Positions 295 to 14,394 of a stretch of DNA of 64,000 nt are shown here, one piece after another. Below the pieces are notes generated by a model, which worked only from the letters and a program-made list of their open reading frames with translations, had not been told where the DNA came from and made no database searches. Origin of the DNA: a virus. Taxonomy: Duplodnaviria > Caudoviricetes. Where the stretch lies: positions 1-64,000 of IMG/VR virus record IMGVR_UViG_3300032243_000867. One strand, written 5' to 3'. Numbering within the stretch: position 1 is the stretch's first letter; each line of letters begins with the position of its first letter. The position numbers and the translations under genes were made by a program.

Positions 295-316
295 CAGGTC
301 GATCTCCTTCTGCCCC

Positions 317-346
317 CTAACCGGACGGGAGGGGGGTCCATTAGCG
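317..346 (-). promoter_or_regulatory. 30-bp leader motif copy 1 (NNCTAA-NNGA-CCCCCC-N6-CCGGTTAG)
   Basis: cgctaatggacccccctcccgtccggttag on minus strand just upstream of the RBS of 1..294. Confidence 0.7.
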
Positions 347-403
347 CCCCGGCGCGGAATCGAACCGCGCTGACCCGCCCCCGGCGAACCGGGGGCGCGG
401 GGC
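342..403 (-). ncRNA. tRNA-like minihelix element 1
   Basis: Acceptor-like GCCCCGC/CCGGGGC (6 of 7 bp), central CCCCCGG-TTCG-CCGGGGG hairpin, T-arm CGCGG-TTCGATT-CCGCG, then G + CTA. Confidence 0.5.
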
Positions 404-412
404 GATGCCGCA

Positions 413-1084
413 TCACGCGGCGGGGATCACCGTCGTCCCCTTGGCACTCACCAGGGGGAGGCCCGCGAAGCAGCCGCGCACCGCCGCCCAGAGCGCGGTG
501 AGCTGGTCGGCGGGCACGGTCCACACCTTCGCGTCGGCGTCCCAGCGCCGCCCCGGCAGGGCGCGGACGGCGGCGATGAACCGCTCGTCGCGGGGGCTGG
601 TCACCGCGAGCACCTCGCGGCTGTACTCCTTCCCCTTGAAGGTCCAGCGGTCGGTGCGGGAGGCGATGCGAACCTCCCCGGCGACCGGGGCGGTCACCGC
701 GCCCAGCTTCACGCGGGCGCGCTTGGCGCAACGCGCGCCGAGCTTGTCGTACCCGAGGGCGTGGAGCGCGTCGGGGATCCAACGGGCGGTCTTGAAGTTC
801 GCCGCGAAGCGGTGAACGAGCACGTTCGCCACCCGGTGCGCCGTGGCGGCGCTCTCGTCGGTGATGAGAGACTCGGGAGCGCCGAGCTCGCTCCCGAAGT
901 TCGCGAGGATCGTGCGGGCGGCGGTCCAGTCGGGGGTGCAGGTCTGCACGTCCCGACCGTGCATCGCACGGCAGTCCGGCCCGACGCCCGCCTGGACGCT
1001 GTCGGCGTCCACGAGGGGCTTGCCGCAGCAAGCACAGTGGGTGGCGAGGAGCTTGGTGGCGGCGGCGTTCACGTAGTTGTTCAT
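413..1084 (-). CDS. Zn-binding DUF6011-like N-terminus plus HARP-like C-terminal domain protein
   Basis: Start MNNYVNAAA with GGGAG RBS; CACCGKPLVDADSVQAGVGPDC motif; C-terminal FIAAVRALPGRRWDADAKVWTVP. Confidence 0.65.
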   Translation of the reverse strand: MNNYVNAAATKLLATHCACCGKPLVDADSVQAGVGPDCRAMHGRDVQTCTPDWTAARTILANFGSELGAPESLITDESAATAHRVANVLVHRFAANFKTARWIPDALHALGYDKLGARCAKRARVKLGAVTAPVAGEVRIASRTDRWTFKGKEYSREVLAVTSPRDERFIAAVRALPGRRWDADAKVWTVPADQLTALWAAVRGCFAGLPLVSAKGTTVIPAA

Positions 1085-1142
1085 GTGATCTCCCTGGGGC
1101 CTTGTTGGCCACTCGGTTTCGGTTTCGTTCCCCCTACACTCC

Positions 1143-1172
1143 CTAACCGGAGCGCAGGGGGGTCCCTTAGCG
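1143..1172 (-). promoter_or_regulatory. 30-bp leader motif copy 2
   Basis: cgctaagggacccccctgcgctccggttag. Confidence 0.7.
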
Positions 1173-1220
1173 GGAATCGTAGGGGGCGTTCGCTTTCGCG
1201 CCGCCGTCCCCCCGCAACTC

Positions 1221-1250
1221 CTAACCGGAGGGGAGGGGGGTCGCTTAGTG
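1221..1250 (-). promoter_or_regulatory. 30-bp leader motif copy 3 (variant A)
   Basis: cactaagcgacccccctcccctccggttag. Confidence 0.7.
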
Positions 1251-1414
1251 GGAATCGTACGAATCCCGTAAGTACGCGAAACCATTAGGGAATCGGTCGG
1301 CACGGATTGTGCTACGCGCGGGCGCGGTCCTATTACTACGGGGGGCGGGGGATTGCCCTACGTTACCCTACGTTACGTTACGTTCAGAGAATTGAACGGG
1401 GCCGTTTCGATTTC
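1251..1414. repeat. Divergent control cassette core, copy 1 (direct repeat of 11891-12055)
   Basis: 48-nt block 1267-1314 is identical to 11907-11954 and 36-nt block 1357-1392 is identical to 11998-12033; contains TACGT tandem repeats. Confidence 0.85.
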
Positions 1415-1444
1415 CACTAATGGACCCCCCCGGCTTCCGGTTAG
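1415..1444 (+). promoter_or_regulatory. 30-bp leader motif copy 4 (variant B)
   Basis: cactaatggacccccccggcttccggttag. Confidence 0.7.
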
Positions 1445-1513
1445 GGGTTGCGGGGGGACGACGGGGCGAACGGTTCGCCCCGAACCCAACGGCTTTCAAA
1501 GGAGACGACGACC

Positions 1514-1867
1514 ATGACGACCATCCTCATCAACCTCACCCCCCACGCTATCTGCCTCCGCTCCGCCGACGGGGCCGACACGGTGATCCCGCCGAGCGGC
1601 ACCGTCGCGCGGGTGAGCTCCACCCCCGGCGCTCTGGAGGCCGTTGCGGGCATCCCCGTGCCCGTGGCCGGGGCCCAGACCTTCGGGGGCGTCGAAGGGC
1701 TCCCCGAGCCCACCCCGGGCACGATGTTCATCGTGTCCGCGCTCGTCCTCTCGGCCCTGCGCGGCTCGCGCCCGGACGTGGTGGGCCCCGGCACCGGCCC
1801 CAACGACGGGGCCGTGCGGAACGACAGGGGACACATCATCGCCGTCACCCGCCTCGTGCGGGGCTGA
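1514..1867 (+). CDS. Conserved phage hypothetical protein (INLTPH motif)
   Basis: AAGGAG RBS; MTTILINLTPHAI...PSGTVARV...FIVSALV. Confidence 0.7.
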   Translation: MTTILINLTPHAICLRSADGADTVIPPSGTVARVSSTPGALEAVAGIPVPVAGAQTFGGVEGLPEPTPGTMFIVSALVLSALRGSRPDVVGPGTGPNDGAVRNDRGHIIAVTRLVRG

Positions 1868-1903
1868 CGGGGCGACGACAACATCCCGTTCTGATCCGCC
1901 CCC

Positions 1904-1948
1904 CCTGCGAAGGTCACACGCTGGGTTCGATTCCCGGCGGCAGGGCCA
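1904..1948 (+). ncRNA. tRNA-like minihelix element 2
   Basis: CCTGC/GCAGG acceptor-like pairing (5 of 7), T-arm CTGGG-TTCGATT-CCCGG, then 7 nt + discriminator G + CCA. Confidence 0.55.
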
Positions 1949-1988
1949 ACCGACAACCGAGCGGCATCGCGCCGACAAGGAGACCACC

Positions 1989-2339
1989 ATGGAAATCGAG
2001 AAGTACGTCATCACCACCCTCACCACCCTCAACGGCTTCCGCCCCGAGCTCGCCGCCGCCCTGCGCGACGGCGCGACGGGCTACGAGGAGGGGGGCGAGA
2101 TCGAGCTCGCAGTCGATTTCGACTGCGATTACTCACCCGCCCGGGCGGGCGGGTGGGACGGGCCTGACGAGCCCGCCACCGTGGACTTCACGGTGCGGGC
2201 GGGCAACGTCCGCCTCACCGACCACGAGGTCGCGGCCCTGTGGCCCGACGACGCGGCCCTGAACCGCGACGTGCTCGCGGAGGTCGAAGGGGCCCTCGCG
2301 GACAGCGAGTGGGACTTCGACCCCTGCGACCTGTACTAA
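1989..2339 (+). CDS. Hypothetical protein (acidic)
   Basis: AAGGAG RBS, MEIEKYVITTL..., coding-like codon usage. Confidence 0.7.
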   Translation: MEIEKYVITTLTTLNGFRPELAAALRDGATGYEEGGEIELAVDFDCDYSPARAGGWDGPDEPATVDFTVRAGNVRLTDHEVAALWPDDAALNRDVLAEVEGALADSEWDFDPCDLY

Positions 2340-2364
2340 TGGACCCCCCCTCCCCCCCGGTTAG
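2334..2364 (+). promoter_or_regulatory. 30-bp leader motif copy 5 (31 nt)
   Basis: tactaatggaccccccctcccccccggttag; overlaps the TAA stop of 1989..2339. Confidence 0.65.
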
Positions 2365-2405
2365 GGGGGGCGGCGGTGCGAAGGGTTTGCCCCGCCCGCC
2401 AACCT

Positions 2406-2456
2406 AGCCACCGTCAATCGGGACACCTCGCGGTTCGACTCCGTGGGTGGCTACCA
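2406..2456 (+). ncRNA. tRNA-like minihelix element 3
   Basis: Perfect 7-bp acceptor AGCCACC/GGTGGCT, T-arm CGCGG-TTCGACT-CCGTG, discriminator A, CCA; only a 16-nt connector instead of D and anticodon arms. Confidence 0.65.
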
Positions 2457-2491
2457 AACCAACCGGGCCTGACGGCCCAGAGGAGAGTTCG

Positions 2492-2827
2492 ATGATGATT
2501 GATTTGGGTCTCACGACCCCGGGCGAGATCGCCCGCCTCCGCACCGACACCTTCGAGGTGGCCGCTGAGGACTACCTCGCGGTGGTTCACGTCGCCGCGT
2601 CCGCGGACGGCAACCCCGCCGGGGGTATGCCCTTCCGTACCGCCGTGACCGTCGCCGCCGAAGTGTGGCGCGACGGCATGGACGACGACGGTGACGGTGA
2701 GCCCGTCACCGACGCGGCGGGCATCGCCGCGCTGCTGGGCTGCTCGCCCGAAGGGCTCGCGGCCCATCTCGTCGAGATGGTCTGCGACCGTGCGCTCGCC
2801 GCGTACGAAGCCCGCTACGACTACTGA
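2492..2827 (+). CDS. Hypothetical protein
   Basis: AGGAG RBS; MMIDLGLTTPGEIARLR... Confidence 0.7.
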   Translation: MMIDLGLTTPGEIARLRTDTFEVAAEDYLAVVHVAASADGNPAGGMPFRTAVTVAAEVWRDGMDDDGDGEPVTDAAGIAALLGCSPEGLAAHLVEMVCDRALAAYEARYDY

Positions 2828-2841
2828 CCCCTACAGGAGAG

Positions 2842-3417
2842 ATGACCATGACCAAGTTCGCCGTTTCCAACGTCTGTTCAGCGTTCACCCCCTCCCCCGT
2901 CGGCACCAAGGTGACCGACGCGGGTGCCTTCACCGCAGCCCTCGCCCTCGCCGTCGAGGCGCACGACACGGCGGGGGACCGCACCCCCGGCCAGCACTTC
3001 GTGACCCTGCCGGGTGACGCCCTCGCGACCGTCTCGGCGGGCGTCGCCCGTCGCGCGGACGTGCCCGAGGACGGGTACGTTGTGCGCGTCCACCGGGGCC
3101 GCGCCGAGTGCTTCGCCGCGCGCCGCTGGCGCGCCCCTACCGCGGGCCTCGCCGCCGTCGTCTACACCCGCGCGGCCTACGCGGCGGACCCGCAGGTGAC
3201 CGCCGCCGAGGCGGCCTCCATCCCCGGTGACGCGACGCACGTCATCGTGGCGGTGCTGGCCTTCGCGGGGCCGCGCGCCCCCCTGTCCCCGCACCGCTTC
3301 GTCGCGAACCTCGCGGGCGGCAACAAAGACGCCGCGACGTACACGGCGGACGAGATGCGGGCGATGGCCCGCGAGATCATCGCCTACGACGACGAGTGGA
3401 TCGTCGTCGCGGGCTGA
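2842..3417 (+). CDS. Hypothetical protein, possibly DUF3228-like
   Basis: AGGAG RBS; VVYTRAAY...THVIVAVLA...PLSPHRFVANLAGGN; family assignment tentative. Confidence 0.65.
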   Translation: MTMTKFAVSNVCSAFTPSPVGTKVTDAGAFTAALALAVEAHDTAGDRTPGQHFVTLPGDALATVSAGVARRADVPEDGYVVRVHRGRAECFAARRWRAPTAGLAAVVYTRAAYAADPQVTAAEAASIPGDATHVIVAVLAFAGPRAPLSPHRFVANLAGGNKDAATYTADEMRAMAREIIAYDDEWIVVAG

Positions 3418-3429
3418 AAGGAGACCGCC

Positions 3430-3795
3430 ATGCGAACCAAGACCCTTGAGGAAAACATCAAGGCGGAGCTCACCGCTTCCGCCCCCGTGACCGTGCTGGA
3501 GTACCAGCCGGGGAACGGCACCCGGTACCTCCTGCACATCACCGACCTTCGGGCGCTTTCCGAAGCGCCCCCGCAGGTCACAGCGTACGCGGGTCACGGC
3601 GCGTACTACGTGGCCCTGTACACCCAAGGCCACGGGACGTGCATGACCATCGCGGACACGGGCGGGTACCTGTCCCCCGTCTACGTCGCCAGCAAGCTGG
3701 GGGTGGGCGAGGGCGATGCGCTCGTCCTCGCGGAGATCATCGCCCGGTACACGGGCCGCACGGCGCTGGACGCCAGCGTGGACGTGGCGTCGTGA
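3430..3795 (+). CDS. Hypothetical protein
   Basis: AAGGAG RBS; 121-aa ORF in operon. Confidence 0.7.
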   Translation: MRTKTLEENIKAELTASAPVTVLEYQPGNGTRYLLHITDLRALSEAPPQVTAYAGHGAYYVALYTQGHGTCMTIADTGGYLSPVYVASKLGVGEGDALVLAEIIARYTGRTALDASVDVAS

Positions 3796-4142
3796 ACCGC
3801 AAACTCGTTCGTAACGAGGGCGAGATCGTCGCCCTTGTGGTATCTGTCCTTGGGGAAGGGAACCCCAAGGCCCTCGAAGACATGCTGGGCATCGAGTTCG
3901 CCTACTCGGACGGTCGCTACCCCAGTGACCTCGAAGACGCCACCCCCTACGATGGGGACTGGTCGTGGGAGGACCAGCCCGTGGACTTCACCACCTACCG
4001 CCACGGCGAGGAGCCATACTTCCCGGCGACGTACCCCGCCTTGGCCCTGTACCTGTTCGACGATGACTTCGACCGGGGCGGGTCGGTGCGTACGCGGGTG
4101 CTGCTCTACGTCGAGCGCCACGAACTGGAGGGGGCGTCGTGA
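3792..4142 (+). CDS. Hypothetical protein
   Basis: GTGA overlap with previous stop; acidic/aromatic composition. Confidence 0.65.
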   Translation: MNRKLVRNEGEIVALVVSVLGEGNPKALEDMLGIEFAYSDGRYPSDLEDATPYDGDWSWEDQPVDFTTYRHGEEPYFPATYPALALYLFDDDFDRGGSVRTRVLLYVERHELEGAS

Positions 4143-4507
4143 GGGTCGCGATCAGCTACGAAACAGCCCTCGCGCGGCACCCCGCCGCCGTCGCGGAGGT
4201 GCTGGCAATACTCGCCAAGTCCCGGTCCAAGGACTCGGACTGCGACCCCACTCACTTCGCGTGGGCCTACTCGTGGGGCCTCTCCTTCCAGTGCGCCACG
4301 CTGGGCGAACTCCTCGCGGGGCGCAAACTCTCCGAGACCCGCTCGCTGGAAGAGCGCGTCGGGAGCATCTCCCTCTACGCCGACAAGGGCCGGAAGTACG
4401 CCTACTCCCACGGCACCTACGACTACGCCCGCGACGGGGCTGAAGCCCTTCCGCCCGAAGTGCGGGCCTATCACTGCGCGGAGCGCCCCGAACTCGAAGG
4501 TTCGTAG
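4139..4507 (+). CDS. Hypothetical protein
   Basis: GTGA overlap; 122 aa. Confidence 0.65.
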   Translation: MRVAISYETALARHPAAVAEVLAILAKSRSKDSDCDPTHFAWAYSWGLSFQCATLGELLAGRKLSETRSLEERVGSISLYADKGRKYAYSHGTYDYARDGAEALPPEVRAYHCAERPELEGS

Positions 4508-4608
4508 CGTAACCGGGCCTTCGGTCGGTATCCCGCTAGGGCGAAAAGTTACCCGACCGCTTCGGGGGGGGTCGGGCGACGGGGGTTTTCGCTACGAAGT
4601 TTCGATTC

Positions 4609-4648
4609 GCCGGGGCGACTCCCCTCGAAGGGAGTCGCCCCGGCCTTT
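4609..4648 (+). terminator. Intrinsic terminator
   Basis: Perfect 15-bp stem GCCGGGGCGACTCCC/GGGAGTCGCCCCGGC followed by CTTTT. Confidence 0.7.
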
Positions 4649-4699
4649 TCGCGTTCCGAAAGTTCTTCGGTCCGGGGGGCGTAACGGAAGGAGAGGACG

Positions 4700-4993
4700 A
4701 TGGATCGTGACCATGGCTTGAACGGGTGCGACTGCTGCGGATGCTCTCAAGGCTCCCACGAGGGCGAGGGCCTTGAGGCGTATGTGATCCGGGGGCGTTG
4801 CGAAACCTCCCGCCGCATCCGTGCAGGGGAGCGTCTCCCTTGCGCCGCGTGCGGGGAGGGAGACGTGGGGATGACCCCTTGCACCGCGTGCAAAACAAAC
4901 GCCGCTGACAGCGGCATGGTCCCTTACTCGGTGCTGGGGCTCACACCTCCCCGACCTCTCTTCAAGGAGTGGTGCGGGTTCCTCAACGACTGA
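4700..4993 (+). CDS. Cys-rich hypothetical protein
   Basis: AGGAGAGG RBS; CDCCGC, CAAC, CTAC motifs; GGGCGTAAC at 4677-4685. Confidence 0.6.
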   Translation: MDRDHGLNGCDCCGCSQGSHEGEGLEAYVIRGRCETSRRIRAGERLPCAACGEGDVGMTPCTACKTNAADSGMVPYSVLGLTPPRPLFKEWCGFLND

Positions 4994-5005
4994 AGGGTGT
5001 TGGTG

Positions 5006-5152
5006 ATGGAATGGGTAGTGGTCCGTGGGGGTTCCTACCGCTACCGCTACGGGGTGATGGTTCGGGCGGCGAAGGTCTGCAAAGAGCCTCCCGAGTCGCT
5101 CGACCGGGAGCCCGGGTTCCGCACCCGCCTACCTGTGAGGCAACCGAGATGA
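5006..5152 (+). CDS. VR-like micro-ORF 1 (FGE/CLec C-terminal segment only)
   Basis: Hand translation MEWVVVRGGSYRYRYGVMVRAAKVCKEPPESLDREPGFRTRLPVRQPR; stop overlaps next ATG. Confidence 0.65.
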   Translation: MEWVVVRGGSYRYRYGVMVRAAKVCKEPPESLDREPGFRTRLPVRQPR

Positions 5153-5319
5153 CCAAGAACGGCAACGAGTCACCGATCTTGGGCGTTCGCGGCGGCAACT
5201 GGGACAACGACCGTAGGTTCTATGTGCGGGTGTCGTTGGAGGAGATTCAGTTTGGCTCCCAGCTTCGGGGCACGGACACGGGTTTCCGCACCTCCCTCTC
5301 TGCGAGGCAACCGAGATGA
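5149..5319 (+). CDS. VR-like micro-ORF 2
   Basis: MTKNGNESPILGVRGGNWDNDRRFYVRVSLEEIQFGSQLRGTDTGFRTSLSARQPR; ATGA overlaps at both ends. Confidence 0.7.
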   Translation: MTKNGNESPILGVRGGNWDNDRRFYVRVSLEEIQFGSQLRGTDTGFRTSLSARQPR

Positions 5320-5471
5320 ACACCCCGTACTTCCGCATCCGAGGGGGATGTTGGATCGCCCGCGATCCGTGGTGGGTTCGCCCTGCGCTCGACACCCCAC
5401 AGAAAGCTGACGTGAACATCAACAGTCTCGGGTTCCGCACCTCCCTCCCTGCAAGGATGCACCGCGTATGA
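5316..5471 (+). CDS. VR-like micro-ORF 3
   Basis: MNTPYFRIRGGCWIARDPWWVRPALDTPQKADVNINSLGFRTSLPARMHRV; ATGA overlaps. Confidence 0.7.
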   Translation: MNTPYFRIRGGCWIARDPWWVRPALDTPQKADVNINSLGFRTSLPARMHRV

Positions 5472-5641
5472 GCGCCACCAAACTTCGAGAAGAATCCCAC
5501 CTTGTTCTTCGTGGGGGTTCTTGGAACCGCACGGGTACCCGCACCTTGCGTACCTATTTCAAAGGGGGGGAGCGACCCGCGCATTTCGACGACTGTCTGG
5601 GATTCCGCACGATGCTGCTGGGGCGTAAGGCACGGGCATGA
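5468..5641 (+). CDS. VR-like micro-ORF 4
   Basis: MSATKLREESHLVLRGGSWNRTGTRTLRTYFKGGERPAHFDDCLGFRTMLLGRKARA; stop overlaps the kinase ATG. Confidence 0.7.
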   Translation: MSATKLREESHLVLRGGSWNRTGTRTLRTYFKGGERPAHFDDCLGFRTMLLGRKARA

Positions 5642-6174
5642 AGCTCATCGTTTTGGAAGGCTGCGACGGCACGGGTACGAGCACCAACGCGAAGAAGTTG
5701 GGGGAGGCCCTCCAGCGCGAGGGCTACAAGACCCTCGTCTACCACCACCCGCCACATCGTCCGGGTGGGGGTGACTGGGAGCGGTCCCTGCACTACGCGA
5801 GGGAGCGGGCCGAGATGGCCACCCGCACGGCGGACGACACGGTGGTGGTGGCGGACCGCTGGGTGTACAGCACGGATGCGATTGCCAAGACCCTCGACGG
5901 CGAGGTTCGTGGGAGGCTGCTGGCCCTCACGGCACTGGAGAGGCAGTCTCTCCCGACCCCCACGCTCATCGTCCTGCTCGACGCCCCCGACGCGGTGCTG
6001 GACGAGAGGCTCACGGCCCGTGGCGAGTCTCTCCCTCCGCACCGTGGCGAGCTTCGTCGTGTGTACCGCGAGAGCATCGCCATGACGTGCGACGTGACGG
6101 TGAACACGGCGGGAGATAGCGGTCGGGTGTCTGACCGTCTGTTGTCCTTGGCCAAGGCTGCACTGGAGGACTGA
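5638..6174 (+). CDS. tmk: Thymidylate kinase-like (dNMP kinase)
   Basis: LIVLEGCDGTGTST P-loop, VVVADRWVYS, TLIVLLDAP. Confidence 0.8.
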   Translation: MKLIVLEGCDGTGTSTNAKKLGEALQREGYKTLVYHHPPHRPGGGDWERSLHYARERAEMATRTADDTVVVADRWVYSTDAIAKTLDGEVRGRLLALTALERQSLPTPTLIVLLDAPDAVLDERLTARGESLPPHRGELRRVYRESIAMTCDVTVNTAGDSGRVSDRLLSLAKAALED

Positions 6175-6175
6175 C

Positions 6176-6340
6176 ATGAGCAAGGGTCTACCGAGGGTCT
6201 GGAAGGCGACGGTCACGTACGAGGTGTACGTTCTCTCACACCGCGCCGACGAAGCAGCGGACTGCGCCAAGCTGAACCGGGACTGCTACGCGGACATCGA
6301 GCAATGGCTGGAGCGCATCAAGAAGGAGGGGGGCAAGTGA
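6176..6340 (+). CDS. Small hypothetical protein
   Basis: GGAGG RBS; MSKGLPRVWKATVTYEVYVLSHRADEAAD...; resembles the N-terminus of the next ORF. Confidence 0.55.
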   Translation: MSKGLPRVWKATVTYEVYVLSHRADEAADCAKLNRDCYADIEQWLERIKKEGGK

Positions 6341-6672
6341 GCGAACCCAAGCTGTACCGGGTAAGAATCGAAGCCGACGTGTACGTCGTCGCGGCCAGCG
6401 AGCGCGACGCCGAGGACTACGCCCTGCGGGAGAGTGACGTGGTGAACGACGCGATGGACAACGCCGACGCCACGGCTTCCGTCGTCACGGCGAAGAGTCT
6501 GAGCGGCGCGGAGGAGAACTGCCTCCCGTGGGTGGACGACGACTTGGAAGACGGCGAGGTTGACCGGGACCGCACGGTGAAGGCATGGGCGGAACTGAAC
6601 GACGCCTCCACGGCCCAAGCCAAGCGCGAGCGTGAGTTCAACGCCAAGCAACTGAACATCCCGGGGACGTGA
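6337..6672 (+). CDS. Hypothetical protein
   Basis: GTGA overlap with GGAGG RBS; VSEPKLYRVRIEADVYVVAAS... Confidence 0.65.
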   Translation: MSEPKLYRVRIEADVYVVAASERDAEDYALRESDVVNDAMDNADATASVVTAKSLSGAEENCLPWVDDDLEDGEVDRDRTVKAWAELNDASTAQAKREREFNAKQLNIPGT

Positions 6673-6887
6673 TGCGAACCTACCACATTCGCATGAGGGA
6701 CGACTACGGGTGGACCTTGGGGAAGGTATCCCCCGACGCGCCCAACAACAGCGCCGTTCTCACCGTCGAGCGGGACGGCACCCGCTGGGTCAGCCGGGTC
6801 AACGTGGACCGCCTGTCCATCGCAGACCTTTCCTCCCTCGCGGAGTTCTGCGCGCACGCGAAGCTCGACACCGGGCGCGGGACGTGA
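6672..6887 (+). CDS. Hypothetical protein
   Basis: Overlaps previous stop; 71 aa. Confidence 0.55.
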   Translation: MRTYHIRMRDDYGWTLGKVSPDAPNNSAVLTVERDGTRWVSRVNVDRLSIADLSSLAEFCAHAKLDTGRGT

Positions 6888-7052
6888 CCGTGGACGCGAC
6901 CCTACGGCAGACGAGCGGGTCATCCGCAACGGTTACCGTGGTTACCTTGCGGGGAGCATGGAGGCCATCGTAGACACCGCAGCCCCCTGCGAGGCGGTGG
7001 GGGCACGGTTGCTTGAGCTCTCCCCAGCGGCCCTTCGGGCGTAAGGTAGACC

Positions 7053-7712
7053 ATGAAGACATACACGTCGGGTGATCTCAAGGAAATCGTTCGACTCCAC
7101 GGACTGTGGCTTGGAGATCCCGCCACGGGTTCTCGGGCGACCTTGACCGGGGCGAACTTGTACAGGGCGTACTTGACCGGGGCGAACTTGACCGGGGCGA
7201 ACTTGACCGGGGCGAACTTGTACAGGGCGTACTTGACCGGGGCGAACTTGACCGGGGCGACCTTGGCCGGGGCGAACTTGACCGGGGCGACCTTGGCCGG
7301 GGCGAACTTGACCGGGGCGAACTTGACCGGGGCGTACTTGGCCGGGGCGACCTTGGCCGGGGCGTACTTGACCGGGGCGACCCTCCCCCCCTTCCAGATC
7401 GTTCCCGAGGTGGGCCAGTTCCGGGCCTTCAAGAAGGTTCAGGGGAACGTAGTACTGGAGCTTCTGATCCCCCGGTCGGCCCAACGGACTTCGACCCTCG
7501 TGGGTCGGAAGTGTCGGGCTTCCAAGGTCAAGGTTGTCGGTGTCGCTAGCGGGACCACCACGGAGACCGTTTTCCGGTCTCCCCACGATGAGGTTTTCAC
7601 CTACGAGGTGGGCAAGTGGGCAAGCGTTTCCGACTACGATGGGGACATCCGGGTGGAATGCACCAAGGGGATTCACTTCTTCCCGACCCTCAAGGAAGCT
7701 CAGGATTATTGA
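7053..7712 (+). CDS. Pentapeptide-repeat protein with DUF5758-like C-terminus
   Basis: About 17 A(N/T/Y)L-type pentapeptides; C-terminal KCRASKVKVV...YEVGK...ECTKGIHFF. Confidence 0.85.
   Translation: MKTYTSGDLKEIVRLHGLWLGDPATGSRATLTGANLYRAYLTGANLTGANLTGANLYRAYLTGANLTGATLAGANLTGATLAGANLTGANLTGAYLAGATLAGAYLTGATLPPFQIVPEVGQFRAFKKVQGNVVLELLIPRSAQRTSTLVGRKCRASKVKVVGVASGTTTETVFRSPHDEVFTYEVGKWASVSDYDGDIRVECTKGIHFFPTLKEAQDY
7134..7384 (+). repeat. 15-nt tandem repeat encoding the pentapeptides
   Basis: Units such as ACCGGGGCGAACTTG / GCCGGGGCGACCTTG / TACAGGGCGTACTTG. Confidence 0.9.
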
Positions 7713-7729
7713 TGACCACCGAGGACGCC

Positions 7730-7963
7730 ATGACCGTGGACGCGACCGTAGAAGACCTCCGAACGCTGATCGGGGACGTGCTGTTCCAACGGGGTTATGG
7801 TTCGGGGTCCTTCGACCCGTACACGCGGGATCACGAACCCGGTTGGCACTACGTCCAAGTGGACGCCCGTTCCTACGACGTTCGTAGGCTGACGGTCAAC
7901 GAGCGGGGTCGTACGGAAGCCGAAGCCTTGCGGGGTGTATTGGACGCCCTTGGAGTACCGTGA
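7730..7963 (+). CDS. Hypothetical protein
   Basis: GAGGA RBS; MTVDATVEDLRTLIGDVLFQRG...; alternative start 7712. Confidence 0.55.
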   Translation: MTVDATVEDLRTLIGDVLFQRGYGSGSFDPYTRDHEPGWHYVQVDARSYDVRRLTVNERGRTEAEALRGVLDALGVP

Positions 7964-8138
7964 ACCTAGATCAAGCCCGAGCTCTGACCGCACGGTTCCC
8001 CGCCTATTCCCCGCCCCCCGTAGCGGGCCCCCGGTAGCGGTGGTTTCTGCCGCTTCCCACCGCGCACCGTCCCCTGAAGCCGAGCGGCGACAGGGGGGTG
8101 GGCTGGGAGCCCGCCCCTACGGAGAACGGGGACAGCCA

Positions 8139-8636
8139 ATGAAGAAGAAGTCCAGCGAGCACGGTGCCGGGTCTGACGGCAACTACATGACGAAGCAGAA
8201 CCTGTGGCTCGCCCACCGCGTGAGCCAGATGCTCTACAACGGCATCCCCGACGGGGTTCTTCTCCCCGATTGGGCCGAGAGCAAGATCAACAGCGCCGCC
8301 CAGCACCTGAAGGAGGTCGCCGGGTGGGCGATGCACGAGTCTCACGGCGATAACCTTCACCCCGCCCCCGAGGCGAACCCCATTCACCTTGCGGGTGAGG
8401 GGGAGCTAAGGTCGAAGCTGGTCCGTCTGGCTCACGAGAACCCCGATCTCCGCCCCCACCTCCTCCCGCTGCTGACCAAGACGGCGGCGGGGGACAAGTG
8501 CGTGGTGTGCGGCAAGCCGGGGGAGGAGATCCGTTACAACGTCCGGGGGTCCGACGGGACGGAGCTCGCGGGGCGCGTGTTCATCAAGGGCTCGGTGCTT
8601 TGCGACAAGCACCAGGAGATGCTCGAAGGCACCTGA
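8139..8636 (+). CDS. Putative head-associated protein carrying the LRSKxxRLAH tag
   Basis: LPDWAESKINSAAQHL helical segment; internal LRSKLVRLAHENPDLRPHLLPLLTKTAA; C-terminal CVVC. Confidence 0.7.
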   Translation: MKKKSSEHGAGSDGNYMTKQNLWLAHRVSQMLYNGIPDGVLLPDWAESKINSAAQHLKEVAGWAMHESHGDNLHPAPEANPIHLAGEGELRSKLVRLAHENPDLRPHLLPLLTKTAAGDKCVVCGKPGEEIRYNVRGSDGTELAGRVFIKGSVLCDKHQEMLEGT

Positions 8637-8672
8637 CCGCCCGGGAGCGAAGAATAACACCAACGAGAAAAG

Positions 8673-8715
8673 CCGCCCCCCGTACCCCGGCGCGATGCCG
8701 GGGTACGGGGGGCGG
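8673..8715. terminator. Bidirectional terminator between convergent genes
   Basis: Perfect 19-bp stem CCGCCCCCCGTACCCCGGC/GCCGGGGTACGGGGGGCGG, A-run before and T-run after. Confidence 0.75.
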
Positions 8716-8720
8716 TTTCG

Positions 8721-9176
8721 TTACGCGGGGGAGACGCCGGGGAGGGACTTGAGAGACACCCGCGGGGTGTTCGGCACCAGGTCCGCCACGCTCGCGACGT
8801 GCGCTTGCACCGCGGGCGGGAAGCAAGCCAGGAAAGTCGGGTCCGCCTTCCGAAGCGAGAGCTTCACCTCGTAGATGGCGTTGAACAGGTCTCCCAACGC
8901 AGCCCTCTCGCCGTCCACCGTCGCGGCGGGGGTGAGCTTCAGCGACGGTCCGGGCACGACCACCTTGGCTTGGGTGAGCCCGTCACCGTCGAAGGTGACG
9001 GTGGATTTGCCAGAGGCGACCGCGAGGGCGCGCACCTCGCGCTTAAAGGGCTCCAGTGCCTCCTGGCACGCCTCGATGGCGTTCCAGAGCGCGGAGGCAG
9101 CGGCCACCTTCGAGGCGAGAGGGGCGGCGGGGTCGTTGATGAGGGCGGTGTGGGCGCTGATGTCGAGGGCTTTCAT
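8721..9176 (-). CDS. Hypothetical protein
   Basis: AAAGGA RBS; MKALDISAHTALIND...; ends at the terminator. Confidence 0.7.
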   Translation of the reverse strand: MKALDISAHTALINDPAAPLASKVAAASALWNAIEACQEALEPFKREVRALAVASGKSTVTFDGDGLTQAKVVVPGPSLKLTPAATVDGERAALGDLFNAIYEVKLSLRKADPTFLACFPPAVQAHVASVADLVPNTPRVSLKSLPGVSPA

Positions 9177-9238
9177 GATCGTGGTCCTTTCGTAGCGGCT
9201 GAGCCGCACCGGGTTGGATTCGGAATATTCGTACGGGT

Positions 9239-9308
9239 CGGTGACCGCCGCAGGACTCGAACCTGCGTCCCGACCGAGGCGCGATGACGGTAGCGCCGTC
9301 GGGCGGTT
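9239..9308 (-). ncRNA. tRNA-like minihelix element 4
   Basis: Acceptor-like AACCGCC/GGCGGTC (6 of 7), central GGCGC/GCGCC hairpin, perfect T-arm GCAGG-TTCGAGT-CCTGC, discriminator A, then CCG. Confidence 0.55.
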
Positions 9309-9394
9309 TCCATAGGCTCGCGGGGGAGGTTCCCGCAAGCACGGTCGTAAGGGGGAAGCGCCCGCCCCCCGGCAACGGGGGGCGGGCCGGTCCG

Positions 9395-10333
9395 TCACTT
9401 CGCGACCGTGCTGGAGGGAGGGGTTTCGTCGGCGTGGTACAGGCCGAAACCCGGCAGGTACCGAATCGAGTCCCCCGCCTTGATCGGGCGACCCGAGGCC
9501 GCGCAGATGCCGTCCACGCGGGCCTTCAGGGTCATGCCCGCGTCGGGCGCGGCCTTGGCCGCGGAGGGGGCGTTCGCCGCGCCCACCGCCGCGTCGAGCT
9601 TGGCGACCGACGCGGTCACCGGGGAGGGCGCGGCGGGCGTCTCGGTGGAGAGCTTGCTGGCCAGGAGCGTCAGCGTCGCCGCCTTGGCGTTCCGGCACCA
9701 CCCAGCGAGGGGGCACTTGCCGCACTCGCCGGACTTCGCCGCCCACGCGCCGAAGCACTCGGTGGAGGCCACCGCGAGGGCGCGGATGTCGTCGTCGTTC
9801 AGCCACGCGGGCACGTCCGCCGCGGGCGCGTTCGCCGCGGGCGCGTTCGCCACCTTCAGGCGGCGCTTCGCCGCCACCGGGGCGGGCGCTTCCGGGGCGG
9901 GCGCTTCCGGGGCGGGCGCTTCCGGGGCGGCGGCGGGCTCCTCAGCCCGAGCCATCGCGGGGGGCTCCGCCGCGGGGGTCGCGGCGGGCTCGTCGGGGGT
10001 GGGGGCCGTTCCCGCTTTGCGGGGCTTGGGAGCCCCGAGGTACTTGTCCCGGTCCTGCGGCGGGAGCGTCCCGCTCGCGAGGGCCTCGCGGCCCAGGTCC
10101 GTGATGGCCCACGTTCCGCGCGTGGGGTCGGACACGATCCCGCGTGCCTTGAGGTCCCACTTCCCGTTGCCCACCGCAGTGCGGTGGGCCTTGTCGGCGG
10201 GGTCGCCGCCGAGCTCCTTGAGGGCCGCGTCCACGGCGGCGTCCACGGCGAGCTCGCCGTTGGGGGCACCCGCCAGGGCGCGGAGCAGGGGGAACTGGGT
10301 GGTGGACTGGCTGATTTTGTTCGTCATCGTCAT
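9395..10333 (-). CDS. Mrr-N-like winged-helix protein with Ala/Pro linker and Cys clusters
   Basis: PLLRALA...LKARGIVSDPTRGTWAITDLGREAL resembles the Mrr N-terminal domain; EAPAP x3 linker; ECFG...ECGKCPLAGWC and C-terminal CAASG...H. Confidence 0.7.
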   Translation of the reverse strand: MTMTNKISQSTTQFPLLRALAGAPNGELAVDAAVDAALKELGGDPADKAHRTAVGNGKWDLKARGIVSDPTRGTWAITDLGREALASGTLPPQDRDKYLGAPKPRKAGTAPTPDEPAATPAAEPPAMARAEEPAAAPEAPAPEAPAPEAPAPVAAKRRLKVANAPAANAPAADVPAWLNDDDIRALAVASTECFGAWAAKSGECGKCPLAGWCRNAKAATLTLLASKLSTETPAAPSPVTASVAKLDAAVGAANAPSAAKAAPDAGMTLKARVDGICAASGRPIKAGDSIRYLPGFGLYHADETPPSSTVAK

Positions 10334-10349
10334 CGTCTCCTTCTGCCCC

Positions 10350-10379
10350 CTAACCGGAAGCCGGGGGGGTCCATTAGTG
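10350..10379 (-). promoter_or_regulatory. 30-bp leader motif copy 6
   Basis: cactaatggacccccccggcttccggttag, directly before the AAGGAG of 9395..10333. Confidence 0.7.
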
Positions 10380-10395
10380 CGAATCAACCGGGCAT

Positions 10396-10451
10396 CGGTC
10401 GATTCCTCAGCCCCTCCGGGGTTACGCCCGGAGGGGCTGAGGAATCGACCG
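10396..10451. repeat. Perfect 25-bp inverted repeat (hairpin)
   Basis: CGGTCGATTCCTCAGCCCCTCCGGG-GTTACG-CCCGGAGGGGCTGAGGAATCGACCG. Confidence 0.9.
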
Positions 10452-10484
10452 GAGCGTTGCACTCCGGTCGCAGCGGGGGGGCCG

Positions 10485-11684
10485 TCAGACGGCGGGGGCG
10501 GCGAGGGGGTCGGCGGACACGTGGGAGGTGTCGCCCTCCTCCACCGCCCCGCCCTTCAGGTGCGGATCGACCAGGCGCTTGAGGGCCTCGCGGGTGTCCT
10601 CATTGGGAGCGCCCGCGAGGATGTCCTGGAGGCCCGAGCGGATGACGCGGGAGGCGGCGATGCCCGTGTAAAAGGTTGCCTCGACGGCCACGGCATCCAT
10701 CCAGTTGGACACCGTGCGGTGTCCGAAGTCGAGGAACAGTTCCTCCTTCTCGACGGCGTCGCGGATCGCCGTGGTCGCCCGCATCACGGCGGGGATCAGG
10801 TCGGGGAAGCGCGCCGCGAGCGCCGGGTACTTCGCGCGGAGCAGGGGCTCCTCATCGCGAGGGTCCATGTTGCTGAACGTCACCTTGAAGGTGAAGCGAT
10901 CCAACACGGACGTGTCCACCGGGGTCGCGGTGTAGCGCCCGGAGGTGTCGCCGCCACCCGCGGTGTTCGCGGTGGCGACGATGAGCGTACCGGGGAGCAC
11001 CTTGTGCATCCCGTTCGCGGCGGGCACGCGCCCGCCGAGGCTGTCGAGGATGGCGCGCAGGGGCTCCATCTGAGCCCGCGTTGCGCGGTCGATGTCGCTG
11101 AGGACGATCAGGTACGGGATCACCCGCCCGTCGGCGGTCTTGTAGCCGTCCCGCAGCGCGCGGAGGAGGTCGCCCTCCTCCCAGTACGTGCCCTGCGGCC
11201 CGAGCGCGCGGGTCGCCAACCACCCCTGGATGTCGGCATCCGGGGTGATGTTGAACACTCGCGCGGGGAGGCGCATCCGGGCGCTCAAGGCGCTGAAGAC
11301 CGCGTCCTTGCCCGTTCCGGGCGGTCCCCAAACCCAGAGGGGCTTGCTGTTGCCCGCCGCGACGCGGGCGGCGACGCGGCGCACCGCGTCGGCCAGCTTC
11401 CCGAAGCCCGGAACCGCGTACGCGGCGGGCAGGGGCAGACAGGCGTCCGCCGGAACGTCGAGGTTGACGGGCATCGGGATGCCCGCGAAGCGCGCGGTCA
11501 CCCCGCCAGCGGGGTTGAAGGCCGCGCGCCGACGCCCCTTGACGTGCGCGTCGTGCGCGGCTTCGAGGGCGGGGGAGGCGGTCTCCCCGTCGTACTCACC
11601 CTCCCCGAGCCCGTGGGCTTCGAGGAGGTGGGGGACCAGATAGTGCGCCTCGAAGGCGCACAGGTTGCACTTGAGCTTCGTCAT
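10485..11684 (-). CDS. MoxR/CobS-like AAA+ ATPase with N-terminal C2H2 zinc finger
   Basis: CNLC...HLLEAH; Walker A GPPGTGKD; Walker B-like IVLSDIDRA; ATANT; VLDRF; alternative start 11690. Confidence 0.85.
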   Translation of the reverse strand: MTKLKCNLCAFEAHYLVPHLLEAHGLGEGEYDGETASPALEAAHDAHVKGRRRAAFNPAGGVTARFAGIPMPVNLDVPADACLPLPAAYAVPGFGKLADAVRRVAARVAAGNSKPLWVWGPPGTGKDAVFSALSARMRLPARVFNITPDADIQGWLATRALGPQGTYWEEGDLLRALRDGYKTADGRVIPYLIVLSDIDRATRAQMEPLRAILDSLGGRVPAANGMHKVLPGTLIVATANTAGGGDTSGRYTATPVDTSVLDRFTFKVTFSNMDPRDEEPLLRAKYPALAARFPDLIPAVMRATTAIRDAVEKEELFLDFGHRTVSNWMDAVAVEATFYTGIAASRVIRSGLQDILAGAPNEDTREALKRLVDPHLKGGAVEEGDTSHVSADPLAAPAV

Positions 11685-11772
11685 CGTCATCCTCCGAATC
11701 GAGCAGGGACCGTTACGCCCGCGCTGCGCCACCGTGGCGCTGCACCCGCGTCCATCCGTCCCCCTCCGTTGC

Positions 11773-11802
11773 CTAACCGGAGGGGAGGGGGGTCCCTTAG
11801 TA
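11773..11802 (-). promoter_or_regulatory. 30-bp leader motif copy 7
   Basis: tactaagggacccccctcccctccggttag. Confidence 0.7.
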
Positions 11803-11860
11803 GGAATCAACCGCCCATCGGTCGATTCCGTCCGCCTCCCCCGCCGTCCCCCCGCAACCC

Positions 11861-11890
11861 CTAACCGGAAGCCGGGGGGGTCCATTAGTG
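11861..11890 (-). promoter_or_regulatory. 30-bp leader motif copy 8 (variant B)
   Basis: cactaatggacccccccggcttccggttag. Confidence 0.7.
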
Positions 11891-12055
11891 GGAATCGAAC
11901 GAATCGCGTAAGTACGCGAAACCATTAGGGAATCGGTCGGCACGGATTGTGCTAATCGTACGCGCGCGATCCGGTAAAATGGGGGCGCGGGGATTGACCT
12001 ACGTTACCCTACGTTACGTTACGTTCAGAGAATCGAGGGGGGCCGTTTCGATTTT
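11891..12055. repeat. Divergent control cassette core, copy 2
   Basis: Direct repeat of 1251-1414 (identical 48-nt and 36-nt blocks). Confidence 0.85.
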
Positions 12056-12085
12056 CACTAAGCGACCCCCCTCCCCTCCGGTTAG
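12056..12085 (+). promoter_or_regulatory. 30-bp leader motif copy 9 (variant A)
   Basis: cactaagcgacccccctcccctccggttag. Confidence 0.7.
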
Positions 12086-12143
12086 GCGTCGGAAGGGGAA
12101 CGGGAACGGTCGAACGGAATCGACCGCATGGCGTAACGAATTT

Positions 12144-12173
12144 CACTAATGGACCCCCCGGCGTTCCGGTTAG
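12144..12173 (+). promoter_or_regulatory. 30-bp leader motif copy 10
   Basis: cactaatggaccccccggcgttccggttag, just before the AAGGAG of the vWA gene. Confidence 0.7.
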
Positions 12174-12186
12174 GGGTCGGAAGGAG

Positions 12187-14394
12187 ATGACGATGACGAA
12201 AATGACGGATGAGCTCGCGATGCCCGGTAGCCGCGTGCGGGAAACGCACGCCGCGACGGTCCTCTCGATTGTTGGCCGGGAGCGGATGCTCCCGGTCGTG
12301 ACGCGGGGCACGGGGTTCGCCATGCGCGGACCCTTCGGATGGCGGGCGGTTGCGCCCGCCCTGTGCCGGGGCGAGCGCGACCCGCGCATCCTCGCGGAAC
12401 ACACGCGCTACGGATCGAACACTCCCGCGTCGATCCAGATCGCGGAGTGCGGCGATGACGTGCCCCGCCGCACCTACTTGGCCCTCATCGGTGGCGCGAG
12501 CCACGAGGCGTTCCATCGCCTCTATTCCCAGCAGGGCGTCCTCACGCCCGCCGTGATCGGCGCGGCTATCGCGCCCGTGAGGGCCAACCCGACCGTTGAC
12601 TGGTCGCGGCGCGCGAAGTTGGTCCTCGACCTCCAGAACGTGGTCGAGGACATCTACATCGAGCGGCTCGGGTGCGAGGAGTTCCCCGGGGTCGCCACAA
12701 AAATGGCGGACCTCGCGGACTACATCGTCCGCATGGAGGCGGACTCCCGCGAGAAGGCGGGCAACCCTCCCGCGACGGTCGTTCAGACCGTGTTCGTCGC
12801 GTGGCGCGACCTGGGCCTGGGGTACAACACCCCGACCCTGCGCGACAACCTCGCGCGGCTCGCCCGCGAGTGCCCGGAAGGGCTCGCGATGCTGCGCCCT
12901 GGCGGCGCGCTGCACGGCGTGTTCACGCGAAGCGTTCCCGACGTGCGGACCCCCGCCGCGCGGGAGCGGGCGAAGCAGGCCCTGCTCGACGGGATCGCCC
13001 TGACCCTCGCCCTCGAAGCGGTCGCGCACCTTGAGGGTGCGGCGAACGCCGAGGAGCCCCAGCCGTCGCAGGGCGGCGAGGGGAAGGGCAAGCCCCAGCC
13101 CGGTAAGGGCGGCGAACCCGCGAAGGGCGAACCTTCCGAGGGCGAACCCGCGAAGGGCGAACCTTCCGAGGGCGAACCTTCCGAGGGCGAACCCGCGAAG
13201 GGCGAACCCGCGAAGGGTGAGGGGCCGGGCGACCAGCCCGGTGACCCTTCCGACGCGGACGGCACCACCCACGACGGCACCAACGGCGTTGACGAGGCCG
13301 AAGGCTCCGCGAACGGCGCGGGCGGCGGCGAGGGCACGTCCACGGCGACCGCCAAGGACTTCCTCGACCAGCACGCCAAGGACGGCACGGGCACGCTGGA
13401 CTCGAACAGCGCACTCGAAGCGGGCGTCAAGGCCGACATGGAGGAGGGAACCCCCGACCCCAAAGACTACACCTCGCCCATGCCGTACCGCCCGTACAGC
13501 ACGGCGGCGGATGAAGTCGTCGGCGTGCGAGCCCACGCGGGAAACGCGGGCTCGTTCGCGGTCATCGCCCGCGAGGCCCGCAAGGGCACGGCGTACCTGC
13601 GGACGCGCCTCGCGGTGCTGTTCCGCGCGCTGGAAAACTCGGGCACCGAGCACGGTGTCCGCAAAGGCTCCGCGCTCTCCCCCCGGATGCTCGTGGACTC
13701 GTACTGCGAGATGCGGGGCGGCGTGATGCCCACGCGGGCCTACATGGACCGCACCCCGGCGATTGATATGTCCATCGCGGCGGCGCTGGTGATTGACGAG
13801 TCGAGCTCGATGAGAGACAAGCTCCGCGAGACGTGCGCGATTGCGTACACGCTCCTGGACGCCCTCGACGGCATCGGCGCGAAGTCGATGGCAATGGGCT
13901 TCCGCACCAAGTCGTACGATGCCGCGTACGACAACCGGGACTACACGGGCGCGAACGGTTGCCACCGCACGCACGCCATGTACTACGACGTGTTCAAGTC
14001 GTGGGGCGAGACCTTCAAGGCTTCCGCGCCGCGCTTGCGCGAGATCAAAGCCTCGGGCGGCACGCCCATGGCGGACGGCATTGAGTTCGCCCTGCGGGAA
14101 CTCAGCGCCCGCCCCGAAGGGCACCGCATCCTGTTCGTACTCACCGACGGCGAGCCCGACGGGGAGCACGCACGGGTCATCCCCACCCAGCTCCAGCGCG
14201 CCGCGGAAGCCGGTGTGCTGGTGATCGGTGTCGGTCTCGGGTCCGGGTCGGAAGGCGTCAAGACCCGGTTCCCCGACCATGTGTACGCTCGCGACCTCGA
14301 CGCCCTCCCGGCGGCACTGGTCCGCAAGCTGGAGGAGCTCGTACGCTCCCGCCACGCGGGCGCGAAGCGTGGCCGCACGGTCAAGGCCGCGTGA
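12187..14394 (+). CDS. CobT-like vWA domain protein (partner of the AAA ATPase)
   Basis: N-terminal SHEAFH (HExxH); MIDAS LVIDESSSM, GGTPM, VLTDGEP; start may be 12193. Confidence 0.85.
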   Translation: MTMTKMTDELAMPGSRVRETHAATVLSIVGRERMLPVVTRGTGFAMRGPFGWRAVAPALCRGERDPRILAEHTRYGSNTPASIQIAECGDDVPRRTYLALIGGASHEAFHRLYSQQGVLTPAVIGAAIAPVRANPTVDWSRRAKLVLDLQNVVEDIYIERLGCEEFPGVATKMADLADYIVRMEADSREKAGNPPATVVQTVFVAWRDLGLGYNTPTLRDNLARLARECPEGLAMLRPGGALHGVFTRSVPDVRTPAARERAKQALLDGIALTLALEAVAHLEGAANAEEPQPSQGGEGKGKPQPGKGGEPAKGEPSEGEPAKGEPSEGEPSEGEPAKGEPAKGEGPGDQPGDPSDADGTTHDGTNGVDEAEGSANGAGGGEGTSTATAKDFLDQHAKDGTGTLDSNSALEAGVKADMEEGTPDPKDYTSPMPYRPYSTAADEVVGVRAHAGNAGSFAVIAREARKGTAYLRTRLAVLFRALENSGTEHGVRKGSALSPRMLVDSYCEMRGGVMPTRAYMDRTPAIDMSIAAALVIDESSSMRDKLRETCAIAYTLLDALDGIGAKSMAMGFRTKSYDAAYDNRDYTGANGCHRTHAMYYDVFKSWGETFKASAPRLREIKASGGTPMADGIEFALRELSARPEGHRILFVLTDGEPDGEHARVIPTQLQRAAEAGVLVIGVGLGSGSEGVKTRFPDHVYARDLDALPAALVRKLEELVRSRHAGAKRGRTVKAA
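13111..13215 (+). repeat. 7 x 15-nt tandem repeat (GEPAK/GEPSE linker)
   Basis: GGCGAACCCGCGAAG and GGCGAACCTTCCGAG units. Confidence 0.9.

Follow-up and report, generated by a model that had tools for sequence, protein, structure and literature searches.

Two intergenic control cassettes of an uncultured large phage, each consisting of a core of ~165 bp between inverted copies of a 29-nt motif, are likely to be paralogous divergent promoter regions which have been reshuffled by short-tract recombination among promoter copies. They lie within the window analyzed here, i.e. the first 64 kb of the 265,895-bp IMG/VR virus record IMGVR_UViG_3300032243_000867. An earlier sequence-only reading of the same DNA had regarded the cores with their inverted flanks as a possible invertible switch or, alternatively, as a mobile promoter cassette. 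Our analysis supports the alternative, since the flanks are members of a repeated and gene-facing family, whereas the switch is not supported: no serine or tyrosine recombinase was found in the record, the arms belong to this gene-facing family and both flank variants occur elsewhere. The arrangement is thus a variant of a known phage regulatory architecture and represents a tidy, fairly ordinary mosaic of regulatory DNA.

A closed family of gene-facing motifs

The motif beside the cores, which we refer to as class I, has the general pattern GATTCCcaCTAA..GACCCCCC-N6-CCGGTTAGG and is followed by a Shine-Dalgarno (SD) block. In its fuller form it comprises a GATTCC-like 5' part of ~10 nt, CTAA-nn-GACCCCCC, a free spacer of 6 nt, CCGGTTAGG and, 5-8 nt further on, an SD-like purine block resembling GAAGGAGA; in the arms of the cassettes the pattern reads CTAA[TG]nGACCCCCC-N6-CCGGTTAGG. 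Record-wide there are 11 copies, named here by position and strand (316-, 1142-, 1220-, 1417+, 2336+, 10349-, 11772-, 11860-, 12058+, 12146+ and 265529-), and all of them are located inside 12.5 kb spanning the record ends (265.5 kb to 12.2 kb). The pattern has 10 matches in the window as compared to none in 100 shuffles. In addition, a profile of the 11 copies scores 36-50 bits at their own sites and at most 6 bits elsewhere in the 266 kb, indicating a closed family rather than a loose consensus.

Every copy faces either a start codon or the next tandem copy (11/11). In four cases (316-, 10349-, 12146+ and 265529-) an ATG follows 12-21 nt past the motif, behind the SD block. Longer leaders are found at 1142- (57 nt), 1417+ (68 nt) and 2336+ (127 nt), and 1220-, 11860- and 12058+ each form the upstream half of a tandem pair with a distance of 78-88 nt.

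The 21 block positions (CTAA, GACCCCCC and CCGGTTAGG) are constant in all copies and four flanking Gs in 10 of the 11, 265529- having a G-to-A change beside CTAA. The 6-nt spacer, on the other hand, occurs in six different sequences across the family. Constant blocks combined with a varied spacer suggest that the blocks are under selection, which goes beyond mere recent copying. Neither a consensus RNA fold nor a covarying pair was obtained for ten class-I copies, a result that favours a protein-binding signal at the DNA level. From its position we conclude that the class-I motif is probably a promoter-plus-SD cassette.

It is GC-rich, does not resemble sigma-70 promoters and has no TTGACA- or TATAAT-like hexamers; a sigma-70 promoter scan of the first 14.5 kb returned no site. 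A sigma-54 or RpoH-type consensus, compared by eye, was rejected because the variable spacer falls on the would-be -12 element. Strong hairpins stand directly upstream of 10349- (z = -9.2), 316- (z = -2.6) and 11772- (z = -2.5), and the inner arms of the cassettes are without one. The first of these, situated between the CobS-like gene and 10349-, is a perfect 25-bp hairpin which carries a GGCGTAA box in its loop. Outside of the record, the pattern was absent from the viral contigs and prokaryote genomes searched and was found in one 1.6-kb contig among the metagenome contigs.

Two side observations concern the surroundings of class-I copies. 10349- and 12146+ have a promoter-SD-ATGACGATGACGAA stretch of 56 nt in common, with 84% identity in DNA. 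Furthermore, tRNA-like T-arm words (GGTTCGATTCC and GGTTCGACTCC), together with an acceptor-like stem and ...GGTGGCTACCA, adjoin class-I copies at 345-414 (-), 2400-2470 (+) and record positions 265560-265620 (-); ARAGORN called no tRNA at these words.

Two duplicated cassettes with a crossed motif patch

The elements of both cassettes are listed in Table 1. As the sequence-only reading had stated, the two cores are direct repeats 10,640 bp apart with identical blocks of 48 nt (1267-1314 = 11907-11954) and 36 nt (1357-1392 = 11998-12033), and the TACGT tandem was likewise confirmed as a pentamer tract within the 36-nt block (1357-1385 and 11998-12026, CCTACG-TTACC-CTACG-TTACG-TTACG-TT). Direct homology exceeds the core, as ~1128-1460 aligns with 11757-12100 over ~330 bp including the outer-left motif (1142- and 11772-). 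These two outer-left motifs are the only ones of the CTAAGGG subtype in the family, one per cassette. The neighbouring genes are unrelated between the cassettes (DUF6011 and 117-aa genes at cassette 1, CobS-like and CobT-like genes at cassette 2), from which it follows that the control DNA alone was duplicated.

Table 1. Class-I copies, cores, neighbouring genes and terminator in the window
Feature	Position	Strand	Remarks
Class-I, outer-left, cassette 1	1142..1170	-	CTAAGGG subtype; 57 nt upstream of ATG 1084 (DUF6011 gene)
Class-I L1, inner-left arm, cassette 1	1220..1248	-	variant B; tandem, 78 nt upstream of 1142-
Core copy 1	1249..1416	.	non-coding; 48-nt block 1267-1314, variable centre 1315-1356, 36-nt block 1357-1392 with (TTACG)n, 10 TACG/CGTA words
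Class-I R1, inner-right arm, cassette 1	1417..1445	+	variant A; 68-nt leader with hairpin, SD AAGGAGA, ATG 1514
Class-I, outer-left, cassette 2	11772..11800	-	CTAAGGG subtype, B spacer; upstream of CobS-like gene
Class-I L2, inner-left arm, cassette 2	11860..11888	-	variant A; inside 61-nt, 97% complement of 1406-1466
Core copy 2	11889..12057	.	orientation as copy 1
Class-I R2, inner-right arm, cassette 2	12058..12086	+	variant B; decayed SD behind
Class-I, outer-right, cassette 2	12146..12174	+	then SD GGAAGGAGA, ATG 12187 (CobT/vWA gene); GGCGTAA box at 12130 just upstream
Class-I, outside cassettes	316..344	-	then SD and ATG at 294 (Imm5-like gene crossing record ends)
Class-I, 7-nt spacer	2336..2365	+	overlaps stop codon of preceding gene; 127-nt leader to ATG 2493; kept in metagenome contig L009
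Class-I, variant A spacer, no core nearby	10349..10377	-	then SD and ATG of Mrr_N-like gene; 25-bp hairpin 10396-10451 directly upstream
DUF6011 protein gene	413..1084	-	leftward from cassette 1
117-aa gene, no assigned function	1514..1867	+	rightward from cassette 1
CobS/MoxR-like AAA_5 ATPase gene	10485..11687	-	leftward from cassette 2
CobT_C/vWA protein gene	12187..14394	+	rightward from cassette 2
Bidirectional terminator hairpin (predicted)	8673..8715	.	meeting point of rightward (2.4-8.6 kb) and leftward (8.7-11.7 kb) units

The inverted 30-mers that had been described on both sides of the cores do exist, as the arms are complementary to 84% over 63 nt in cassette 1 (1195-1257/1408-1470) and to 75% over 53 nt in cassette 2 (11847-11899/12047-12099). 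They are not private to the cores, however, as they constitute 4 of the 11 copies of one gene-facing family. Two outward-facing class-I cassettes necessarily create an inverted repeat around the DNA between them; inverted repeats around a short intergenic segment are therefore an automatic by-product of an outward-facing promoter pair and no evidence for phase variation, which removes a false lead. A further inverted repeat of 61 nt with 97% complementarity (1406-1466/11839-11899) brackets a block of 10.4 kb, the other pairs of the family reaching 70-86%.

The exchange of flank variants between the cassettes was confirmed. Variant B (GC, TCCCCT) is identical in 1220- and 12058+ and variant A (TG, CGGCTT) in 1417+ and 11860-, each over 29/29 positions, and all other pairs of arms agree in 23/29. 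The two variants differ by six bases within the motif and possibly by the first base beyond it. According to the sequence-only reading, this is exactly the pattern that an inversion of the core would produce. What is crossed, however, is only the motif patch, while the core-side DNA agrees with the direct alignment: in the 30 nt next to the core, L1 and L2 match in 28/30 and R1 and R2 in 26/30 positions, as compared to 12-14/30 for the crossed pairs. In the first 20 nt past the motif three arms are nearly alike, and a single informative site places L2 with L1. The crossed stretch is hence internal to the arms, covering 26-48 nt of L2 and 16-32 nt of R2, and is limited on the core side by direct-alignment sequence in both arms and on the far side by one such base, in the left arms only. 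With these limits, a single inversion with a crossover in the repeats does not cleanly give the pattern. Judged from the sequences, two short gene conversions, or one reciprocal double crossover between inverted copies, would give it.

Neither variant is confined to the cassette arms beside the cores. Without a core beside them, the A spacer recurs at 10349- and the B spacer at 11772-, which indicates that the variants are common to the family and not specific to a cassette. This assorting of A and B among promoters is one half of what the sequence-only reading had named as speaking against a switch. In addition, its observation that no invertase lies in the window can be extended to the whole record: neither PF00239 (Resolvase) nor PF00589 (Phage_integrase) matched in the 265,895 bp, whereas the controls matched in 12/14 and 14/14 genomes, respectively; a host enzyme could in principle stand in.

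In the scenario that we prefer, outward-facing class-I copies, single or in tandem, would start the four transcription units of the 12.5-kb block. A regulatory segment of ~330 bp, containing the outer-left and inner-left promoters, the core and the inner-right promoter, would have been duplicated directly in front of unrelated genes. Later, family members would have exchanged a 26-48-nt patch of the inner promoters through short-tract homologous recombination or gene conversion, in two non-reciprocal events or in one reciprocal double crossover, leaving the mirror-image A/B pattern. The core would serve both inner promoters as a common regulator or extra-promoter site array. The four predicted units are set by the two divergent regions and comprise, in detail, the DUF6011 and Imm5-like genes (leftward), the 117-aa gene and the 2.4-8.6-kb block up to the terminator at 8673-8715 (rightward), the CobS-like and Mrr_N-like genes (leftward) and the CobT/vWA gene and onward (rightward). 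The term 'early' for this block is the label of the sequence-only reading and was assumed from the gene content.

The core, a second signal class and competing explanations

A second class of signals is represented by the GGCGTAA box, which occurs 57 times in the record. In 36 cases a start codon with at least 40 open codons behind it lies 5-12 nt (mode 8) downstream, as compared to 13% at random positions. Examples in the window are found at 4678, 5622, 7038, 15757, 16527 and 17320 (+) and at 10428 and 11719 (-). The box looks like the -10 box of leaderless transcripts and hence like a second promoter class (class II). The single sigma-70-family gene of the record (16544-17326) has such a box in front. 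RNA_pol and Rpb2 domains, indicative of single-subunit or multisubunit RNA polymerases, had no match in the 265,895 bp, so that transcription would have to rely on the host core enzyme.

Further copies, which the sequence-only reading had proposed to look for, were found for the motif but not for the core. Core words occur solely at the two core sites of the record, they had no matches in viral contigs, a megablast search of GenBank phages gave no match, and no other collection searched contained a copy of the core. The centre between the two perfect blocks contains indels and is identical in only about half of its positions. Identity over 48 and 36 nt amid a divergence of ~20% in the outer repeat suggests either selection or recent conversion. 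With 10 and 8 TACG/CGTA words against a mean of 1.3, the cores rank 2nd and 4th record-wide in the density of these words. Their ends, TGGGAATCG and CGATTTCCA, are inverted repeats of one another. The core as such is asymmetric and carries CGTAA-type boxes on both strands, without the GGG of the class-II boxes. Of the 20 CGTAACGT octamers of the record, four lie in the pentamer tract, on its minus strand, and GGCGTAA boxes account for 13 of the remaining 16. On the plus strand the 48-nt block starts with CGTAAGTAC, which is also seen in class-II boxes near 71.2, 71.6 and 254.2 kb, an observation made without an exact genome-wide count of the 9-mer.

Six-frame translation gave no open reading frame (ORF) common to both core copies, and the cores had no tRNA, tmRNA or Rfam matches. 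Single-strand folds of both cores and both strands had z values between -2.2 and +0.8, with one common hairpin only, the 3' half of which is partly conserved. A replication origin at the core is unsupported, since the cumulative GC skew has no turning point there. In view of its two perfectly conserved blocks and its very high TACG density, the core is probably an operator or extra-promoter site array acting on both inner promoters. As a lead only, it may hold weak second-class boxes placed face-to-face, although these lack the conserved GGG, or operator sites.

Among the alternatives, it is unlikely that the 29-nt motif is a transcribed leader element, i.e. a signal for processing, stability or translation, and that the promoters are located inside the cores, e.g. 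as face-to-face CGTAA-type boxes. Such an element would fit the fixed distance of 5-8 nt from the SD block, the overlap of 2336+ with the stop codon of the upstream gene within a co-directional run, the GGCGTAA box 9 nt upstream of 12146+, with which the transcript would start with the motif, and the presence of 4/20 CGTAACGT octamers in the cores, as GGCGTAA boxes make up 13 of the 16 octamers found elsewhere. The copies have neither RNA structure nor covariation in common, however, and their tandem spacing of 78-88 nt is typical of promoters. Moreover, 316-, 10349- and 265529- come after strong terminator-like hairpins and hence need a new start, and the core boxes lack the GGG which is found in all 13 CGTAACGT-type class-II boxes.

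Very unlikely, in our view, is a separate small element, such as a miniature inverted-repeat transposable element (MITE)-like sequence, a small RNA gene or an origin, which would consist of the core with ~10-nt GAATCG-type ends and would have landed twice in the same orientation between existing promoter pairs, the arms being neither duplicated nor swapped. Against this stands the direct homology, which continues far past the core through the leader of the left arm and the outer-left motif, both outer-left motifs being of the otherwise absent CTAAGGG subtype. While mutually inverted core ends (TGGGAATCG and CGATTTCCA), core words unique to two sites and the mostly back-to-back divergent cassette pairs of a related phage (L012, see below), 5-10 nt apart, would be in line with such an insertion, a mobile element, RNA gene or origin is not indicated by any Rfam or tRNA match, significant fold, GC-skew turn or core copy in the other collections searched.

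Site-specific invertible switches are known from E. coli (fimS with FimB/E), Salmonella (hin), phage Mu (G segment with Gin) and Bacteroides (invertons). They resemble the cassettes in that a short intergenic segment is enclosed by inverted repeats tens of bases long. Here, in contrast, there is no invertase gene, the repeats are a dispersed gene-facing family and no sigma-70-type promoter was found in the segment. We consider it highly improbable that the 165-bp core, or the 10.4-kb block between 1406-1466 and 11839-11899, flips and thereby re-couples the divergent operons to a directional core element. The inverted arms of 51-63 nt around each core and the mirror-imaged A/B variants would agree with flipping; the core is asymmetric, so that its orientation could matter, and the 117-aa gene block is oriented differently in L012. 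Yet neither a serine nor a tyrosine recombinase was found in the record, the arms are ordinary family members and not dedicated recombination sites, both cores have the same orientation, the swapped patch is limited on the core side by direct-alignment DNA and both variants occur elsewhere. As the promoters are in the arms, a flip of the core would also leave the genes connected to them. Equally improbable is an ongoing, invertase-free recombination between the inverted arms, with the core or the 10.4-kb block present in both orientations in the phage population. If this were true, flips would re-pair a directional control element with different operons, and the A/B mirror pattern would be the footprint of repeated flips.

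Several points weigh against our reading as duplicated and reshuffled divergent promoter regions. The promoter activity of class I is deduced from position, and the motif fits no sigma-70 consensus and has no assigned -35/-10 elements. A swap that looks reciprocal, with A in the left and B in the right arm of one cassette, would likewise result from two successive core inversions and hence from past flipping. Furthermore, the 61-nt, 97% inverted repeat (1406-1466/11839-11899) is a plausible substrate for an inversion of 10.4 kb, and, as CheckV estimates the record to be 59% complete, the part not recovered might encode a recombinase, though the record ends join in frame.

Relatives, comparable systems and the surrounding genes

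Homologues of the CobS-like protein with 84-92% identity exist (P0007, P0008, P0011 and P0015). The CobS search of IMG/VR gave one relative at 65% identity, L012 (IMGVR_UViG_3300023174_000096, positions 1-12598), and several at 41% or less; prokaryote genomes yielded none. L012 has no class-I motif. It carries instead a cassette of the form GATTCTTGGTTAC-N13-CTCCGTGGTG-N5-ATG, with 16 copies in 12.6 kb, which precedes the orthologues of five genes (CobT, CobS, Mrr_N-like, DUF6011 and 117-aa). As different cassettes stand before the same five orthologues, the two types are positional equivalents. Most divergent cassette pairs of L012 are back-to-back with 5-10 nt between them; its CobS/CobT pair is likewise divergent, with 151 nt between inverted arms, a spacer that shows no relationship to the core. 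The 117-aa gene of L012 lies downstream of DUF6011 and has the orientation of CobS, whereas in the phage studied here it is divergent from DUF6011 across cassette 1, suggesting that a module was moved and turned at a cassette.

The metagenome contig L009 is 94% identical to window positions 1982-2845, copy 2336+ included, and continues past the point corresponding to 2845 with other genes that have L012-type cassettes (L009:940-1530), so that both cassette types are found on one contig. None of the breakpoints in L009 or L012 was placed exactly on a class-I copy. The three 41% relatives scanned (L013, L015 and L017) contained no repeated cassette family. The phage sigma factor was not found in the records of three relatives; the L012 contig begins inside CobT and is uninformative in this respect.

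A known counterpart are the promoter-early stem-loop (PeSL) cassettes of T4-type phages, i.e. repeated promoter/stem-loop units before early genes, between which recombination shuffles modules (Arbiol et al. 2010, PMC2839356; Comeau et al. 2014, PMC4122927). In both systems short and highly conserved regulatory cassettes precede numerous dispensable genes of a large phage (early ones in T4), related phages differ by replacement or relocation of modules beside the cassettes and the mosaicism is proposed to arise from homologous exchange between the copies. Several copies here (10349-, 316- and 11772-) have a stem-loop directly upstream, the inner arms none. The differences are that the present motif is GC-rich and not sigma-70-like, whereas a strong sigma-70-like promoter is a criterion for PeSLs, that the cassette includes the SD block and is confined to one region of 12.5 kb, and that two copies of a 165-bp inter-promoter core belong to the repeat. 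Promoter or terminator activity and recombination products (mini-circles) demonstrated by experiment are a further criterion for PeSLs, whereas the present family is known from its sequence.

Tandem and divergent clusters of early promoters are known from lytic phages, as exemplified by T7 A1-A3 and the early promoters of T5. Like those, the class-I copies are near-identical, would be stacked in tandem before first-expressed genes and would be read without a phage-encoded polymerase. Unlike in T7 and T5, the sequence is not sigma-70-like and a whole divergent region is duplicated 10.6 kb away. The family probably represents the promoter/leader cassette that is expressed first in this uncultured phage of 266 kb. 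Together with a related phage that has a wholly different cassette before the same five genes, and a third fragment with both types, it makes these phages well suited to studies on how large phages lacking an RNA polymerase of their own swap transcription signals and shuffle gene modules.

The last and first bases of the record join to give one unbroken minus-strand ORF for an Imm5-like protein of ~160 aa (window 1-294 and record 265560-265895), and in a tblastx synteny analysis, which was otherwise too noisy at this GC content, a relative was colinear across the junction. The two ends are therefore adjacent, and the region considered here extends from 265.5 kb across position 1 to 12.2 kb. 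Although the record is labelled linear and 59% complete, it may represent a closed circle or at least be contiguous at this junction.

Some minor features of the gene block should be mentioned. The neighbouring genes 9395-10330, 10485-11687 and 12187-14394 all begin with MTMT(K/N). Arrays of 15-nt tandem repeats are contained within coding frames at 7090-7419, in a five-residue repeat protein (7053-7712), and at 13111-13245, where they encode the EGEPAKG-type linker of the CobT/vWA protein. Finally, a sub-threshold Rfam match to the CyVA-1 small RNA (33.4 bits against a gathering score of 41.4, E = 0.0003) is located at 8031-8106 (+) inside the frame 7935-8636.

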